IMG/VR virus record: IMGVR_UViG_2693429768_000006
Length of the DNA stretch: 31,107 nucleotides
Reading direction: 5' to 3' (one strand)
Source: a virus
Lineage: Duplodnaviria; Heunggongvirae; Uroviricota; Caudoviricetes
This document shows positions 25,706 to 31,107 of the stretch, piece by piece. Numbering within the stretch: the first letter of the stretch is position 1; each line of letters opens with the position of its first letter. The position numbers and the translations under genes are program-made. The notes under the pieces are model-generated. The model did not search any database, was not told the DNA's origin, and saw only the letters and a list, made by a program, of their open reading frames with translations.

Positions 25706-27617
25706 TCACTCCTCCGGACAGCTTCGCTGCCAGTTCTTTAAGGGTTGGCCGGGTCGTCTCTTCTTCCCGGGATTTTGCCAGTACAGCCAGATCAAGCTGC
25801 CAGCGTTGCACGGACACACGTAATGCCGCGTAGGCATACACCAGGCAGTCCAGCGCTTCGTTACGCCGCTTTTTGTTATCCCACAGCAGACGCATCTTTC
25901 CTTTTTCCCACTTCTCCACAAGCTCTTCCGCGACCAGTTGCTGCGCCTCTGTCTGCGAAAAAATCTCCGGATCATCAGGAAAACGGATGGCATACGACGT
26001 GGCTTCATCCACAGGCGTGGGATCGGCTTTCATACGGGCATAGAGAATTTCTTTTGCGGTGTCCGTCCCCACTTCACACAGATACACGCCCCGCTGATTG
26101 CGGGTTTTTGGCATGGTGATCACCGGCTTGCCATAGACAGATGCGCCTTTTACCGGCAGCACCCGGAAAACACCGTGTTTTTTTGACCTCTGATAAACGA
26201 TTTCGCCATCGATCCCCCCGATGTCCCAGCAGACACGGGAAATAGTCATTTCGGTTCCGTCTGCATGGCGGTATTTTTTGTTGATCGCCGCATCCACACG
26301 TAACAGCGTCTCTTCCTCATCGGGACGCCCCATAATGATGATTTTATCCACCAGAAAGGCTTCCTCTCCCGGAGCCCATCCCCAGACATACATCTCAAAA
26401 CGGTTTCGCTGCGAGTCAATGCCCGCCGTCAGATAAACCACCCGGGCAGGCACCGCCGCCGTGTAACGCACAACCTTATCCATCAGTACCTGGTGATCGA
26501 TTTTTTCGCCCACAGCCTCTTCCCAGGTCTCGCCCAGCGTGGTGTTCACAAAGGTTTTCAGGCCGTTGGGATCTTTCAGTGCATCCAGCCAGTCATAGAC
26601 AATCTGTACCCAGGTGGTGAACGGACTGTACGCCGTCCAGATATGGAAAGTGATGGAGCGCGGCGGCGGAATTTCATTACCCGCAGCGCTGAAAAACGTC
26701 AGGCCGTCACGGGTCCACATGCCCGTGTTTTCACAGATCCACCGCCCGTTACTCTGGTCCAGTTCAGACTGATGGATCACGCAGCCATGATGCTCACAGA
26801 GGTAGAAAACGCTTTCGGGGCTGTCCTTCTCCCATTTAAGCCCAAAAGGCGTGGACTCATCGCCAAATTTCAGATACTGCTCCTCCCCACAGTGCGGACA
26901 GGGCACATAAAAACGCATGAAGTGTGCCGACTCGTTAGCGGCTTTTTCGATCTGGCAGGAGCCTTTGATTTTAGGAGTCGAGCCGCGAATGGATTTGGGC
27001 CATACAGAGCCCTCAATACGTTTATCCCCCAGCAGGGTTGGCGAACCCTCTTTTTCAACATCCGGTTCGAACGAGGAAAGCTCGTCATAACAGACCACAT
27101 CCACGGATTTTTCACGGTAGTTTTTTGCTGCCGCTCCCCCCAGACACCAGAAACCCACACCGGAGGAAAAACGCTTCAGGGTGAGCGTATTATCGCGGTG
27201 TTTTCTTCCGAACCATGGAGCCAGCTCCAGCAACGCAGGAACCTCCCTTATCGTTGGCTCAACATGAGATTTCATAAAATCTTCAGCAGCTGAGTCCGTG
27301 GGCTGAAAAAGAAGGCTGTTGCGTGATTTATGCTCAATAAAATAAGCCTCCACTCCCAGCAACATCTTTGTATAACCAACACGGGCAGATTTAATCAGGT
27401 TAACAGTGCGAATCAAATCGTTGCCCATACAGTTCATGATGCCAACCTGAAACGGCAGTGTTTCCCACCGCCCCGGGGTATAAGACGACTCTTTAGGAAG
27501 GTAATAATGTTTATTGGCCCACTGAACTGTCGTCAGTGGAACAGGAATAATGAGAGATAAAAGCCCTGTTGCTATCGCACCGGCTGCATTAGCTGCCTTC
27601 TGCGCGTCTGAAATCAT
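25689..27617 (-). CDS. A: terminase large subunit A
   Basis: Colinear with lambda gpA; start placed at MISDAQKA... (27617) by alignment with lambda. The ORF-track ATG at 27659 is an alternative. Confidence 0.9.
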
Positions 27618-28137
27618 CGATCCACCCGCCCACGTTTTCACCGGCCTTAGCTGAAACATTGGAGGCTTTCGCGATTTCAGTTTTCACCACATCAAGGTGT
27701 GATGGTGAAATGTCCGGATATTTACGCTGTAATGTCAACGGCACACGCACAAGTATCCCCGAAATCTCCTGTGCCACACGTTGCAGAATGAAGGTAAACA
27801 GTTCAGTTTCCAGCACTACTCCGTCTTCACGGGCATTTTTCAGTTCCTGCGCATCTGCCTGCGCTTTTGTGAGCCGGTAGCGTTCATAGTCAATGGTGCC
27901 GGGTTGTAAATCTGACTCCGCTGCCGCACGCAAATCGTCCAGTTCTTTGCGGAGCTTTTCGTTTTCGATATCAGTTTCCCTCTGCGCATACCACTGAATT
28001 GCCATGGCAGTATCAAATACAGATTCAATGCCCTTACTACCTTTGGAGGCGCAAGGGAGTCCCTGAGACTGCCAGCGTTCAATCGTCCGCGGGTCCACGT
28101 TGAAAATTTCGGCAAGCCTCTTTTTATTAACCTTCAT
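27589..28137 (-). CDS. nu1: terminase small subunit Nu1
   Basis: 182 aa; [12 protein letters not shown]...TIERWQ... matches lambda gpNu1; overlaps the A start as in lambda. Confidence 0.95.
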
Positions 28138-28162
28138 GAAAACAACCCATTATCAAATACAA

Positions 28163-28217
28163 GGCCCGACATGAAAACGCCAGAAAAAGGCATTTTCGGA
28201 CACTTTCATGTCGGACC
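28163..28217. other. cosB-like region: 13-bp inverted repeat flanking an A/T-rich spacer
   Basis: GGCCCGACATGAAAA ... TTTTCATGTCGGACC between the Nu1 start and cosN; resembles the opposed R3/R2 terminase-binding elements around an IHF site in lambda cosB. Confidence 0.4.
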
Positions 28218-28313
28218 TTTACGGATGCAATATAAAAAAAAACAAAAAGTTATATTCGAGAAGTACCGACACGATTTTCCCTGAAAAATTTTCATAAATA
28301 GTGAAAAACCGCG

Positions 28314-28325
28314 AGGTCGCCGCCC
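28314..28325 (-). other. cosN cohesive-end site (12-nt)
   Basis: Minus strand reads CGTTACGGGGCGGCGACCTCGCGG; GGGCGGCGACCT is identical to the lambda cohesive end, followed by lambda-like TTTTCACTATTTATGAAAATTTT. Confidence 0.85.
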
Positions 28326-28358
28326 CGTAACGGCCCGGATCGCCGGAAAGGACCCGCA

Positions 28359-28381
28359 AAAATGATAATGGTTATCATTTT
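28359..28381. repeat. perfect 23-bp palindrome near the cosQ position
   Basis: AAAATGATAA-TGG-TTATCATTTT, 10-bp arms, about 35 bp from cosN on the lysis-gene side. Confidence 0.4.
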
Positions 28382-28578
28382 CAATGTAGTCCAGTTTCTT
28401 CCACCATCGCACCGGACAGGCGACTATGAGGGGACAACGCCGCGCTCCGTTAACGCGGTAAACCCCGGTGTGTATCGTTTTTGATTATCCCCGCACACTC
28501 GCGCAGAGGAGTCTCCCGGTCGGGCTGCGGTCTCTGTTAATGCGGGGATACGGCGACAATACCGCGCATCAGCAAAAC

Positions 28579-29046
28579 TTATTTCAGGCACTGAGTGCGG
28601 ATATATTCCTGCGCCACTTCCAGCTGCTTCTGCATCAGCATCAACCGCTCTCTGAGAGTGAAATAATCCCGTTCAGCGGTGTCTGCCAGTCGGGGGCCGG
28701 TTGCATTATCCACGCCGGAGGTGGTGGGGGCTTCACGCACGGTACCGGGGCAGGTGGCGTTGATCCGCAGGCGCTTACGACCAGCGGCAACGTCAGCGCG
28801 CAGAGTTTCATTTTCAGCTCTCGCATCGGCTAATTCCCTCGAGTATCTGGCATCAAGTGCAGCAACATCACGCTGGCGCTGCTGCATATCAGTAATGGTT
28901 GCATTTGCCTGCTCCAGCTCACTGACTTTTTTATCGCGCTGCTCTTTGTAGGTTATGGCGTTATCACGGTAATGATTCAGCCCCAGACTAAGCGCACCAC
29001 AGGCCACCAGCAGGGCAATGATGACCACGCACAGTACGCGGTTCAT
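28579..29046 (-). CDS. Rz: i-spanin Rz
   Basis: 155 aa; N-terminal TM then NHYRDNAITYK...RLADTAERDYFTLRERL matches lambda Rz. Confidence 0.95.
   Translation of the reverse strand: MNRVLCVVIIALLVACGALSLGLNHYRDNAITYKEQRDKKVSELEQANATITDMQQRQRDVAALDARYSRELADARAENETLRADVAAGRKRLRINATCPGTVREAPTTSGVDNATGPRLADTAERDYFTLRERLMLMQKQLEVAQEYIRTQCLK
28641..28826 (-). CDS. Rz1: o-spanin Rz1 (lipoprotein) embedded in the +1 frame of Rz
   Basis: 61 aa; lipobox VVSAC then a proline-rich segment and CVKPPPPPAWIMQP...DWQTPLNGIIS matching lambda Rz1. Confidence 0.9.
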   Translation of the reverse strand: MRELKMKLCALTLPLVVSACGSTPPAPVPCVKPPPPPAWIMQPAPDWQTPLNGIISLSESG

Positions 29047-29047
29047 T

Positions 29048-29185
29048 TCACCACCAGCGTATCTGACCGATGAAATAACCGGAGGCCATAATCACAAACA
29101 CCAGCCAGATAAGAATGAACTTCCAGGTGGATAATTTTTCAGCCATCACTCGAATCTCCCGAATCAGTTTGCTAAAATCAAACAC
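29048..29185 (-). CDS. candidate 45-aa single-pass membrane protein, translationally coupled to Rz
   Basis: GTG start at 29185 preceded by AGGAG at 5-nt spacing; product MFDFSKLIREIRVMAEKLSTWKFILIWLVFVIMASGYFIGQIRWW has a 20-residue hydrophobic stretch; stop is 1 nt before the Rz ATG. Confidence 0.4.
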   Translation of the reverse strand: MFDFSKLIREIRVMAEKLSTWKFILIWLVFVIMASGYFIGQIRWW

Positions 29186-29221
29186 ACTTTCTCCTTTGAC
29201 TTTTCCAGAGTCAGGAAACAC

Positions 29222-29257
29222 AAAACCCCGCTTGCAGCCAACAAACGGGGTTTTTAC
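29222..29257. terminator. bidirectional terminator-like hairpin between R and the small ORF
   Basis: AAAACCCCG ... CGGGGTTTT stem with T-runs on both sides. Confidence 0.4.
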
Positions 29258-29344
29258 TTTTATTCACTTAGTTTTTGTCAGTTCGCAGGATTTCGTGTTA
29301 TCCGTCCGTGTAAGCAAACCGCATTTTTCAGCAAAATATTCTGC

Positions 29345-29878
29345 TTATCTGTCGATACCCCAGCACGCCAGCGCGCTCTCCTGGTCACGACGGGATACCT
29401 GACCGTAGCAGTTGTTTGAACGAATACGGCAGTCTCTGCCACCGTCCTTAATCCACCAGCGAATCGCCTCACACGCTCCCCTGCGATCACCTGCATTAAT
29501 TCGTTTATAAAACGTCGACGGGAAACACTTACCGGGACCAATGTTGTACGGACAGAATGACGCGATCCCCGCTTTCTGGGGTTCGCTCAATGGCACTTTG
29601 ATGTTTTTCTCCACCCATGCCAGCGCCTTATCACGCTCAATGGCGTTAACCCGGTCGCATTTTTCCTTCGACAACTTCATGCCCGGAACGACAGGTTTGC
29701 CATCCACCAGGATGGCACCGCGGCAGATGGTCCAGATACCCGCGCCATCACGGTATGCCGTGGTGTGGTTACCTTCCTTTTCATCCAGAAACTGGTCGAG
29801 AATGTCAGGCGCAGGCGCACCAGCGGCAATCAGCGCCAGAACGGCAGCCGACAGGCCGTATCTGATTTTTGCGTTCAT
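29345..29878 (-). CDS. R: SAR-type endolysin (GH24, T4-lysozyme-like)
   Basis: 177 aa; N-terminal weakly hydrophobic Gly/Ala-rich stretch (LSAAVLALIAAGAPAP) typical of a signal-arrest-release domain; catalytic E-x8-D-x5-T spacing in EGNHTTAYRDGAGIWT. Confidence 0.85.
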   Translation of the reverse strand: MNAKIRYGLSAAVLALIAAGAPAPDILDQFLDEKEGNHTTAYRDGAGIWTICRGAILVDGKPVVPGMKLSKEKCDRVNAIERDKALAWVEKNIKVPLSEPQKAGIASFCPYNIGPGKCFPSTFYKRINAGDRRGACEAIRWWIKDGGRDCRIRSNNCYGQVSRRDQESALACWGIDR

Positions 29879-29983
29879 GGATATTTATCAGGATTTATCG
29901 GTTTCTGAGCCCTGGATATGTTTATCAGTTCCAGCCTGTTGCCTCAGGCTGCTAACAGGTCAATACAATCATGAGGATTATTT

Positions 29984-30256
29984 ATGGACAATAACACCAT
30001 TTCTCTACAGGAGTTGCTCGACAGCATTTCCAGGCTTCGGGAAGACGTGAATACCCTTACCGTCGCCTTCTCATATCTGGCATTCTCAATTCCAAGGGAA
30101 CAGATGCAATCAACGCTGGCATCAATCCAGTTTGAATCATGCAATCCCAAATGGTCTCAGGAACAACAAGACTCTTTCAGGCGGCTTGCTGTATTACTGG
30201 ATGAAAAATATGCTGGTAAAATTACCATTTCGGCGGACTCTTCAGAGAACCCGTAA
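29984..30256 (+). CDS. hypothetical protein (90 aa), plus-strand moron inside the lysis cassette
   Basis: ATG at 29984 preceded by GAGGA at about 9-nt spacing; lower GC than neighbours; only plus-strand ORF with a credible start in the late region. Confidence 0.4.
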   Translation: MDNNTISLQELLDSISRLREDVNTLTVAFSYLAFSIPREQMQSTLASIQFESCNPKWSQEQQDSFRRLAVLLDEKYAGKITISADSSENP

Positions 30257-30566
30257 TTATTCCCGGTAGTTTTCCTCTGTAGGTTATCAACACATCCTGC
30301 GCCTCTAAAATTACGGGGCGCTTTTCCGGCGACTGCTCATCCCCTTCACATAACCCGGCAGCAACATCCAGGAAGACCTGTCTGATGCTCCTTCTGGCTG
30401 CTGCCTCATAAAACTCCAGCGCGGCACCTTCAACACGGTCCAGCGAGATGTCCAGGTCAAAAATTTCACCGTCAAAGCGTTTTTTGTCCCGTAACGCTAA
30501 AGTTACCGTAACTTTATTCTCAAAATTGCGGATCCCTTTCACAATCAGTTCATAGTTTTGAGTCAT
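30222..30566 (-). CDS. hypothetical protein between holin and endolysin (position of ydfR in Qin-type lysis cassettes)
   Basis: 114-aa ORF starting 4 nt after the holin stop with GGGGAGAG SD inside the holin 3' end. Family not recognised; ydfR-like assignment is by position and memory only. Confidence 0.6.
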   Translation of the reverse strand: MTQNYELIVKGIRNFENKVTVTLALRDKKRFDGEIFDLDISLDRVEGAALEFYEAAARRSIRQVFLDVAAGLCEGDEQSPEKRPVILEAQDVLITYRGKLPGIITGSLKSPPKW

Positions 30567-30570
30567 TGAA

Positions 30571-30786
30571 TTACTCTCCCCGTGCAGCCTTACGACGGTC
30601 CTCTCTGATTTTGAAATACAGGTTAGTCAGATATGTCAGCAGCCCAAACAGCAGACTCCCCAGCACGCCTATTGCCGCCCACTGAGACGGGGAAACCCTG
30701 TCCAGCAACTGCAGGAACCAGTAGCCCGTTCCCACCGCTGACGTGGTGTATGACACACCTGTTGTGATTTTTTCCATCTGGTACAT
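30571..30786 (-). CDS. S: phage-21-type pinholin (S21 family), dual-start motif M-Y-Q-M
   Basis: Product ...[68 protein letters not shown] is near-identical in its core to the S21 holin as recalled; two in-frame ATGs at 30786 and 30777; GGGAGA SD. Confidence 0.85.
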
Positions 30787-30821
30787 ACCCCGTCTCCCGT
30801 TATCCGGAAGCTGACAACAAT

Positions 30822-30851
30822 AAAAAAAGCCACCAGTTAAGTACTGATGGC
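30822..30851 (-). terminator. tR'-like rho-independent terminator just upstream of the holin gene
   Basis: Minus strand reads GCCATCAG-TACTTAA-CTGGTGGC followed by a 7-U run (8-bp stem, one mismatch). Confidence 0.5.
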
Positions 30852-31107
30852 TCTGATAACTCATGCAGGCATCTCAGACGACCCACTGACACTACCGGTG
30901 AGTTTAACGATACCTTCCATTTGACTGGCTCACTTTTTATGATGATGCTGGTGCATTTATCTCCAGCACCAGACTTTCTATCTCAACGCCATACGCTGCA
31001 TTTTTGGTAATATCCGTCAGCGTCAGCGCATTCAGCCCCAGTGTCAGACTGTCTTTTATGACCTGGAATGCCGGGCCAGCCACTCCATTCAGTTTCGGAG
31101 TAACCGT

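Follow-up and report, generated by a model that had tools for sequence, protein, structure and literature searches.

A mobile cassette with two conserved hairpins and a predicted 45-codon membrane-protein gene in late operons of Enterobacterales prophages

The gap between the endolysin and Rz genes of a lambdoid prophage holds a mobile cassette in which a terminator hairpin, a hairpin over the Shine-Dalgarno (SD) sequence and a 45-codon open reading frame (ORF) with a GTG start travel together. Comparison of this arrangement among many bacterial genera shows that the ORF is a conserved protein-coding gene and, through covariation, that both hairpins are conserved. The reading we prefer, with a probability of roughly 0.55, is that the cassette is a late-operon moron that encodes a tail-anchored inner-membrane protein, and that this protein would be silenced outside lytic growth by the terminator, by SD occlusion, by a weak start codon and probably by an antisense RNA.

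The endolysin-Rz gap and its 45-codon gene

The window analyzed, meaning the whole stretch of 31,107 nucleotides (IMG/VR virus record IMGVR_UViG_2693429768_000006), is part of a lambdoid prophage, and E. coli strain 120899 (NZ_CP025916) matches it with 100% identity over the query. The late genes lie on the minus strand in the order holin, YdfR-family gene, endolysin, Rz/Rz1, cos and terminase genes. Judged from its sequence, the hydrophobic N-terminal stretch of the endolysin looks like a signal-anchor-release (SAR) domain. The features of this region, with their positions in the window, are as follows.

About 30571-30786, minus strand: class II holin gene
30222-30566, minus strand: YdfR-family gene
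29345-29878, minus strand: lysozyme-type endolysin gene (PHROG 7), the 5' neighbour of the cassette
29222-29254, both strands: bidirectional intrinsic-terminator hairpin, AAAACCCCG...CGGGGTTTT, the left end of the cassette
29188-29218, minus strand: SD-occluding hairpin, in which the SD region (AGGAGAAA) pairs with an upstream UUUCCU, with inner stem GAC/GUC
29191-29195, minus strand: Shine-Dalgarno sequence AGGAG, 5 nt ahead of the GTG
29185-29258, plus strand: predicted cis-antisense RNA of ~75 nt, from the geometry of promoter and terminator
29150-29178, plus strand: predicted antisense promoter (extended -10) within codons 3-12, from sequence only
29144-29160, minus strand: possible internal start, with GGGAG (29160-29156), 9 nt and the ATG of Met14 (29146-29144)
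29048-29185, minus strand: 45-codon gene for a small predicted membrane protein, GTG start, TGA stop (29050-29048), product MFDFSKLIREIRVMAEKLSTWKFILIWLVFVIMASGYFIGQIRWW
28579-29046, minus strand: Rz i-spanin gene (PHROG 13), its ATG 1 nt past the ORF stop
28641-28826, minus strand: Rz1 o-spanin gene (PHROG 3198), within Rz
28314-28325: lambda-type cos site GGGCGGCGACCT

A first, sequence-only reading of this region had described a gap of about 300 bp between R and Rz, filled by a bidirectional terminator-like hairpin and a 45-codon ORF with a strong SD and a stop codon 1 nt from the Rz ATG. The gap measures 298 bp and contains both elements as described. The hairpin at 29222-29254 has T-runs on both strands (29214-29221, minus; 29251-29262, plus), the AGGAG (29195-29191) stands 5 nt ahead of the GTG at 29185-29183, and a single base separates the TGA of the ORF (29050-29048) from the ATG of Rz (29046). 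A longer 57-codon GTG frame, from 29221, was set aside because the homologues favour the 45-codon start.

Comparison with homologous loci shows that the ORF is a real, conserved protein-coding gene. Between the window and other loci dN/dS was 0.09-0.26, with dS above 1 and saturated. Across 13 diverse loci the proposed frame had a mean pN/pS of 0.31, compared with 0.5-2.6 for the remaining five; the ORF was exactly 45 codons long at all 13 of these loci and in 199 of 200 retrieved copies. In all, 64 distinct sequence variants with this arrangement were recovered from many genera, which is far beyond chance. Conservation in relatives is thus a matter of the ORF and not of the nucleotides alone, given the low dN/dS, the fixed length and the presence of homologues across Enterobacterales.

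These homologues were found in E. coli, E. albertii, E. fergusonii, Salmonella, Citrobacter, Edwardsiella, Yersinia, Trabulsiella, Izhakiella, Sodalis, Brenneria, Pantoea, Symbiopectobacterium and Serratia, and in one Azoarcus metagenome-assembled genome. Among complete E. coli genomes the cassette is carried by 870 of 5426 (about 1 in 6), and the carriers include Stx1, Stx2a and Stx2c phages. A profile search of 1.8 billion representatives returned 40 relatives of 32-86 aa, which have in common the pattern xSKLIRELRxMxEKLxxW[KR]F followed by ~18 hydrophobic residues. Distant homologues, with 31-48% identity to the window protein, keep the helix-transmembrane (TM) pattern.

The sequence had not been recognized in the first reading, and the homology search yielded a single family: the peptide matched PHROG 6632 (function unknown) at E = 1.4e-29 over profile positions 1-45 of 45, and peptide searches of NCBIfam, Pfam, PADLOC and PDB gave no match. 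A full-text literature search with the peptide, WP_000459342.1 and the PHROG number returned no papers. Annotation by PGAP is sporadic, with WP_000459342.1 entered as a 'hypothetical protein' in an O26 genome and in some O26/Stx-phage records; the ORF is unannotated in the genome of the window and in most others. The family was previously on record as an anonymous ORF only: PHROG 6632 and WP_000459342.1 belong to the same family, but these entries record the ORF without cassette structure, RNA elements or distribution.

Analysis of hydropathy revealed a single hydrophobic segment at residues ~23-40. An AlphaFold2 model (mean pLDDT 85.7) has a helix at 4-17, a break at Ser/Pro19 and a second helix at 20-44, in agreement with the one TM helix proposed earlier. 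The N-terminal helix is amphipathic and net-positive, the C-terminal helix is the TM helix, and a 5-residue tail ends in RWW. The product is predicted from this model to be a tail-anchored single-pass inner-membrane protein with an N-in/C-out topology, its N-terminal helix being cytoplasmic and its tail periplasmic.

Conserved hairpins and constrained first codons

The hairpin at the left end of the cassette was called on the minus strand by a terminator scan, and the leader folds with -29.2 kcal/mol (z = -4.9). Its covariation extends over 13 pairs, with 95% of cells paired and compensatory changes at 7 pairs; none of 500 shuffles was as good, and slid controls were far lower. G.U wobble cells numbered 12 on the sense strand compared with 3 that wobble solely on the antisense strand, which argues that the stem is maintained at least in the late mRNA. 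A sense terminator would show this bias in any case, which leaves it without weight for an antisense RNA, and hairpin energies compared between the strands, for part of the rows, showed no clear bias. An Rfam scan of 27500-31107 (E <= 10) gave one sub-threshold match, a rimP-leader over the terminator (29.9 bits vs a gathering threshold of 47), which was rejected as a generic terminator resemblance; the same scan returned no family for the predicted antisense RNA.

The second hairpin lies over the SD. Analysis by RNAalifold revealed 8 pairs, 3 of them with compensatory changes, in which the SD (GGGAGAA or AGGAGAAA) pairs with UUUCU right past the terminator. The inner stem exists in three versions (CCUUG/CAAGG, GUUA/UAAC and UGAC/GUCA). 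In the window alone this hairpin is weak (-7.6 kcal/mol, z = -0.9) and its support is covariation; taking both hairpins together, compensatory change was seen at 11 of 20 pairs. Covariation among the homologues shows that both hairpins are conserved.

The translation signals and their spacing were also compared. The SD of the homologues is GGGAGAA or GAGGAA, and the distance from terminator to SD is only ~30 nt. Of the 64 unique cassettes, 59 start with GTG and 3 with TTG; the other two have GTA and GCG at this position, and ATG does not occur. A scan of the cassette for sense-strand promoters found none.

The first codons of the gene are unusually constrained. The pairwise mean pS was 0.30 for codons 2-13, 0.75 for codons 14-23 and 0.76 for codons 24-45, the pairs being non-independent and the Wilcoxon p-value inflated in consequence. 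Codon usage was compared in 19 representatives with less than 93% nucleotide identity. Ser5 was AGC and Arg12 CGA in all 19, Asp3 was GAT, Lys6 AAA and Glu10 GAG in 18 of 19, Arg9 was always xGG and codon 4 always ended in T; the third-position entropy of the constrained codons AGC, CGA and GAT was about 0. In contrast, further downstream in the same representatives, Arg43 was encoded by five codons and Ile39 by three. RNA structure was rejected as the cause of the constraint on codons 2-13, as none is conserved there and the segment is slightly less structured than synonymously recoded controls.

Codons 2-13 appear, from the reading of their opposite strand, to carry a divergent extended -10 promoter. 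This strand has TCG(A/C)A(T/A), 17 nt and TGCTAAAAT (TGn + TAAAAT); in the window the parts are a -35-like TCGAAT (29150-29155), a 17-nt spacer, TG (29170-29171) and a -10 TAAAAT (29173-29178). TGCTAA[A/T/G]AT (core TGnTAnnnT) is present in all 64 unique cassettes, and the core is kept in distant members despite other amino acids (TGATAAAAT in Azoarcus, TGCTAAGAT in a 52-aa subfamily). The candidate -35 is weak, with 3 of 6 matches, and a consensus promoter scanner did not call the candidate at 29150-29178.

Two other readings of the region were rejected. A plus-strand site that the scanner did call, at 29063-29092 (CTGACC-18-CATAAT), has its -10 over variable TM codons and is unconserved, and an UP-element in codons 14-19 was dismissed, pS in these codons being no lower than further downstream. 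The block under constraint, codons 1-13, matches a core promoter in length.

The CGG GAG part of the constraint is explained equally well by an internal SD for Met14. A start at this codon is possible from the arrangement of GGGAG and ATG and would give a 32-aa isoform. M14 is invariant, and copies in which the 5' part has been replaced (truncated copies) start precisely at Met14.

Transcription from the candidate antisense promoter is predicted to start at ~29184-29186, the complement of the start codon. The resulting RNA, as delimited by promoter and terminator, has a predicted fold of -21.9 kcal/mol (z = -4.6). In the Hfq-CRAC sRNA table of Tree et al. 2014 the R-Rz region of Sakai Sp4 has no peak, a result that is uninformative since Sakai is without an intact cassette. 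The Pas sRNAs (Zhu et al. 2026 preprint) were considered and set aside, as they stem from other loci near the holin and not from the cassette.

Mobility of the cassette and insertion contexts

When loci from E. coli, Salmonella and E. fergusonii are compared, the terminator hairpin, the SD hairpin and the GTG ORF are seen to travel together as one mobile cassette. Homology among these loci extends from ~10 nt before the hairpin to the stop codon. The Salmonella copy, whose phage has a P22-type portal gene, is flanked by a Phage_lysozyme endolysin and by an Rz of the Phage_lysis type. The neighbours of the E. fergusonii copy are a GH19 endolysin, a holin of the holin_8 type and a DUF2514 Rz. 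In Sakai Sp15 homology to the window stops exactly at the left edge of the hairpin, and the same joint is occupied instead by an antirepressor gene and, directly ahead of Rz, a gene for an unrelated TM protein of 48 aa. In K-12 Qin, rrrQ and rzpQ overlap directly. The terminator had initially been regarded as a separate insertion; this did not hold, since the hairpin is part of the cassette.

To describe the insertion contexts, the neighbours of 64 distinct cassettes were clustered, from sampling that is biased toward E. coli. About 40 of the 64 lie between endolysin and Rz-like spanin genes. The endolysin neighbours belong to five unrelated families (PHROG 7 lysozyme, GH19, PHROG 873, PHROG 465 M15 peptidase and GH108-like) and the Rz neighbours to three or more (PHROG 13, DUF2514 and PHROG 214). 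Thirteen cassettes follow a baseplate spike-like gene and precede a further baseplate gene, which encodes a PHROG 120 wedge subunit at 12 of the 13 sites and the uncharacterised PHROG 7986 protein at the Yersinia site. Elsewhere the upstream neighbour is a lambda K-like minor tail protein, a tail-fibre or structural gene or a gene for a 965-aa protein. One further context is an antirepressor adjoining a fimbrial-like gene, and in the Azoarcus metagenome-assembled genome the cassette lies between large ORFs. There are at least eight different neighbour contexts in all, roughly one third of the distinct variants have no lysis genes nearby, and the orientation of the cassette is always that of its neighbours.

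In most variants the next gene starts 1-16 nt past the TGGTGG-stop, with equally tight spacing at baseplate genes. The cassette end GGTGGTGA resembles an SD, and ahead of Rz TGGTGGTGA is SD-like; by its sequence, the TGGTGG-stop supplies an SD-like ribosome-binding sequence to the following gene, here Rz. The 1-nt distance to Rz thus comes with the cassette and is no evidence for a functional link with the spanin.

These contexts bear directly on the role that had been proposed from the coupling to the spanin, that of an accessory lysis or envelope protein. Three Rz families following the cassette, together with the third of variants away from lysis genes, speak against that argument. In its lysis form the proposal is that the product acts with the spanin or with a pinholin/SAR-endolysin, for example as an antiholin-like timer or a spanin regulator, and is co-translated with Rz. 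The cassettes that lie exactly between endolysin and Rz genes, across five endolysin and at least three Rz families, speak for it, and it fits a small predicted inner-membrane protein whose gene ends 1 nt ahead of the Rz ATG; such close packing, however, recurs at baseplate genes. The possible dual start (GTG1/ATG14, with the internal GGGAG) recalls holin/antiholin pairs, but a class II holin gene is already present at about 30571-30786. Precedents for a membrane protein at this joint exist, namely the 48-aa TM protein gene just before Rz in Sakai Sp15 and P2 lysA, a membrane protein gene that lies between endolysin and spanin genes and affects lysis timing. P2 LysA, Mu gp25 releasin and the lambda S107 antiholin are likewise small or medium membrane proteins of lysis cassettes, and the possible dual start is a shared trait. 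However, none of the three has sequence similarity to the 45-aa protein, P2 LysA is larger, and the cassette also occurs where no lysis genes are nearby, at baseplate sites (13 variants) and among tail, tail-fibre and other late genes. Lambda, phage 21 and K-12 Qin lyse without the cassette. Where spanins and endolysins do adjoin it they are unrelated to one another, which makes a specific protein partner unlikely. We consider an accessory lysis protein of this kind unlikely. A lysis-related role in a broader sense is possible, given the ~40 of 64 variants at the endolysin-Rz junction in an E. coli-biased sample; such a role, if any, is independent of a particular spanin or endolysin.

Proposed explanation and relation to known systems

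The silenced late-operon moron that we prefer would work as follows. A horizontally mobile, self-contained cassette would insert between tightly packed genes of a phage late operon, bringing in the order 5' to 3' the terminator hairpin, the SD-occluding hairpin, the non-ATG (GTG) start and the 45-codon gene. Since the cassette is without a sense promoter, the protein would be made only from late transcripts that read through the terminator, and in this lambdoid phage the read-through would be provided by Q-antiterminated transcription. In the lysogen, leaky transcripts would be halted at the terminator. Any that got past it would be translated poorly and would meet a constitutive cis-antisense RNA, which would be driven from a promoter within the first 13 codons, cover the start codon and the SD and end at the same terminator. 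In the lytic phase the antisense promoter would be overwhelmed or occluded by heavy transcription running toward it. The four layers (terminator, SD occlusion, weak start codon and antisense RNA) would thus keep the gene off in the lysogen and switch it on only in lytic growth.

Multilayer silencing is typical of membrane-toxic peptides such as the type I toxins. From this likeness, and that to sar/ant of P22, we infer a late protein that is active at the membrane and would do harm if it were made at the wrong time. In P22, sar is a short antisense RNA that starts near the translation initiation region of ant, runs against the main transcript and blocks translation. It differs from the cassette in region (immI) and product (antirepressor), there is no homology, and the antisense RNA of the cassette is a predicted one. 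In the baseplate and tail operons of phages for which no antitermination is known, a strong sense terminator would cut off essential genes downstream, and the terminator may therefore be leaky or may have another role, for example in mRNA processing or stability.

The same likeness raises the idea of a type I toxin-antitoxin addiction module, which would stabilise the prophage by post-segregational killing or serve as an abortive-infection switch. As in hok/sok, tisB/istR-1, zorO/orzO and timP/timR, a membrane protein of at most 50 aa is encoded behind an SD hidden by the mRNA fold, the element is mobile, here as a prophage-borne cassette, and an antisense RNA covers the ribosome-binding site and start codon, in the cassette by prediction; the start codon is moreover weak. 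However, the cassette contains no promoter for a toxin and has a terminator directly upstream, so that the stable pool of toxin mRNA in the lysogen on which addiction depends is not expected. The protein has no similarity to Hok, Ldr, TisB, Ibs, ShoB or other Pfam toxin families, and its toxicity is a matter of analogy. Its topology also differs: most type I toxins have the TM helix first, whereas here a cytoplasmic N-terminal helix precedes a C-terminal TM helix. An addiction module is on this evidence quite improbable.

Lysogenic conversion and superinfection exclusion are further functions of extra phage genes, and HK97 gp15 is reportedly a moron of this type. A conventional moron, active in the prophage state and protecting or modifying the envelope of the host, would be consistent with a small inner-membrane protein, with insertion between late genes and with the presence of the cassette in 870 of 5426 complete E. 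coli genomes. Like the lambdoid morons (Juhala et al. 2000; lambda bor/lom, HK97 gp15), the cassette adds a single gene between conserved late genes, is absent from close relatives, occurs in many unrelated contexts and has an intrinsic terminator. Classical morons, however, are active in the lysogen, from a promoter of their own on the upstream side and with a terminator on the downstream side, whereas the cassette has its terminator upstream, no sense promoter, an occluded SD and a GTG start, all of which point to repression in the lysogen. The cassette behaves like a moron but falls outside the definition by own promoter and downstream terminator, and expression of the conventional kind is very unlikely.

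The last alternative, that the ORF is not a gene and that nucleotides alone are conserved, for example as a 5' leader of Rz or as a recombination linker, could draw on the missing PGAP annotation in the genome of the window and most others and on the nucleotide-level conservation of the first 13 codons, but is effectively refuted by a dN/dS far below 1 with synonymous change saturated in codons 14-45, by the exact length, by the helix-TM pattern of distant homologues and by cassettes that no Rz follows.

Searches of the literature and of Rfam returned no description of the cassette architecture, of the two covarying hairpins, of the invariant non-ATG start, of the promoter-like constraint in the first codons or of the promiscuous distribution. 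The silenced late-operon moron would add a widespread and mostly unannotated small membrane protein to the late functions of phages, and it may be a compact case in which the opening codons of a gene also serve as promoter for the antisense RNA that represses it. A bolder version, which we put forward tentatively and would not bet on, is that the cassette represents a previously unrecognised class of promoterless, antisense-guarded, type I toxin-like elements, licensed by antiterminated late transcription, with a coding sequence that houses the promoter of the silencing RNA. Such an element would spread as a plug-in module between unrelated phages of Enterobacterales, would act as the homology linker in the shuffling of endolysin and spanin modules and would be the source of a new late membrane effector. 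If this were true, the effector could be, for example, a fail-safe that acts by depolarisation to trigger or sharpen lysis, or a protein that shuts the envelope to superinfection.

Two consequences concern the neighbouring genes. In Shiga-toxin phages lysis timing governs toxin release, and by abutting Rz and giving it a ribosome-binding sequence the cassette may influence spanin expression in these phages. The conserved ends of the cassette may also explain how unrelated endolysin and spanin modules recombine.

Recurrent insertion between R and Rz

Insertions recur at the R-Rz junction, and so do small TM genes immediately 5' of Rz. In Sakai Sp15, a Stx1 prophage (L207, NC_002695.2 2919748-2920463), this junction holds a different insert from that of the window, composed of the antirepressor ECs_2967 and the 48-aa TM protein ECs_5741. 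The latter is unrelated to the 45-aa small membrane protein family and ends a few nt before Rz.

Variant forms of the 45-aa family

A 52-aa subfamily with a different C-terminus (…APFLYGVARLIEAIKQ) was identified in three loci (L226, L232 and L234; match at 2501-2641). Its members retain both hairpins (terminator and SD-occluding) and a GTG start, together with the antisense TGCTAAGAT, a predicted extended -10 promoter. Conservation is higher in the regulatory 5' half than in the protein tail. Truncated members of the 45-aa family were present in L236-L238 (match at 2501-2605), where the hairpin, the GTG and the first codons have been replaced and a 32-aa ORF remains. The start of this ORF is the conserved Met14, which is preceded by an internal AAGGAG. 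A candidate truncated member is the 28-aa hypothetical ORF located immediately 5' of Rz in O104:H4 (L006, 2111-2197).

Alternative readings of the hairpin region

29115-29402, plus strand: 95-aa ORF, hypothetical in the annotation of phage CP-1639 (EC_CP1639_38)

This ORF covers the hairpin and runs antisense to the conserved 45-codon gene. It looks spurious, with pN/pS values of 0.5-2.6 in antisense frames. An Rfam match to the rimP leader over the terminator region (29189-29278, plus strand) scored 29.9 bits, below the gathering score of 47 (E = 0.047), and probably reflects generic hairpin resemblance.

Flanking ORFs and the cos site

29984-30256, plus strand: 90-aa ORF, PHROG 2411, RefSeq WP_000369850.1 (hypothetical)
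30571-30864, minus strand: holin reading frame, open for 97 codons

The 90-aa ORF is located between the YdfR-like and lysozyme genes on the strand opposite to the late operon, with a 35-nt overlap at the 3' end of the former. Although the holin frame is open for 97 codons, homologues and PGAP use a 71-residue form (MYQMEK…), in which two Met codons close together at the start could provide a dual start. The 12-nt lambda-type cohesive end GGGCGGCGACCT (cos) occurs as an exact copy at 28314-28325 (minus strand), flanked by Rz on one side and the terminase small-subunit gene on the other; no such match is expected by chance.
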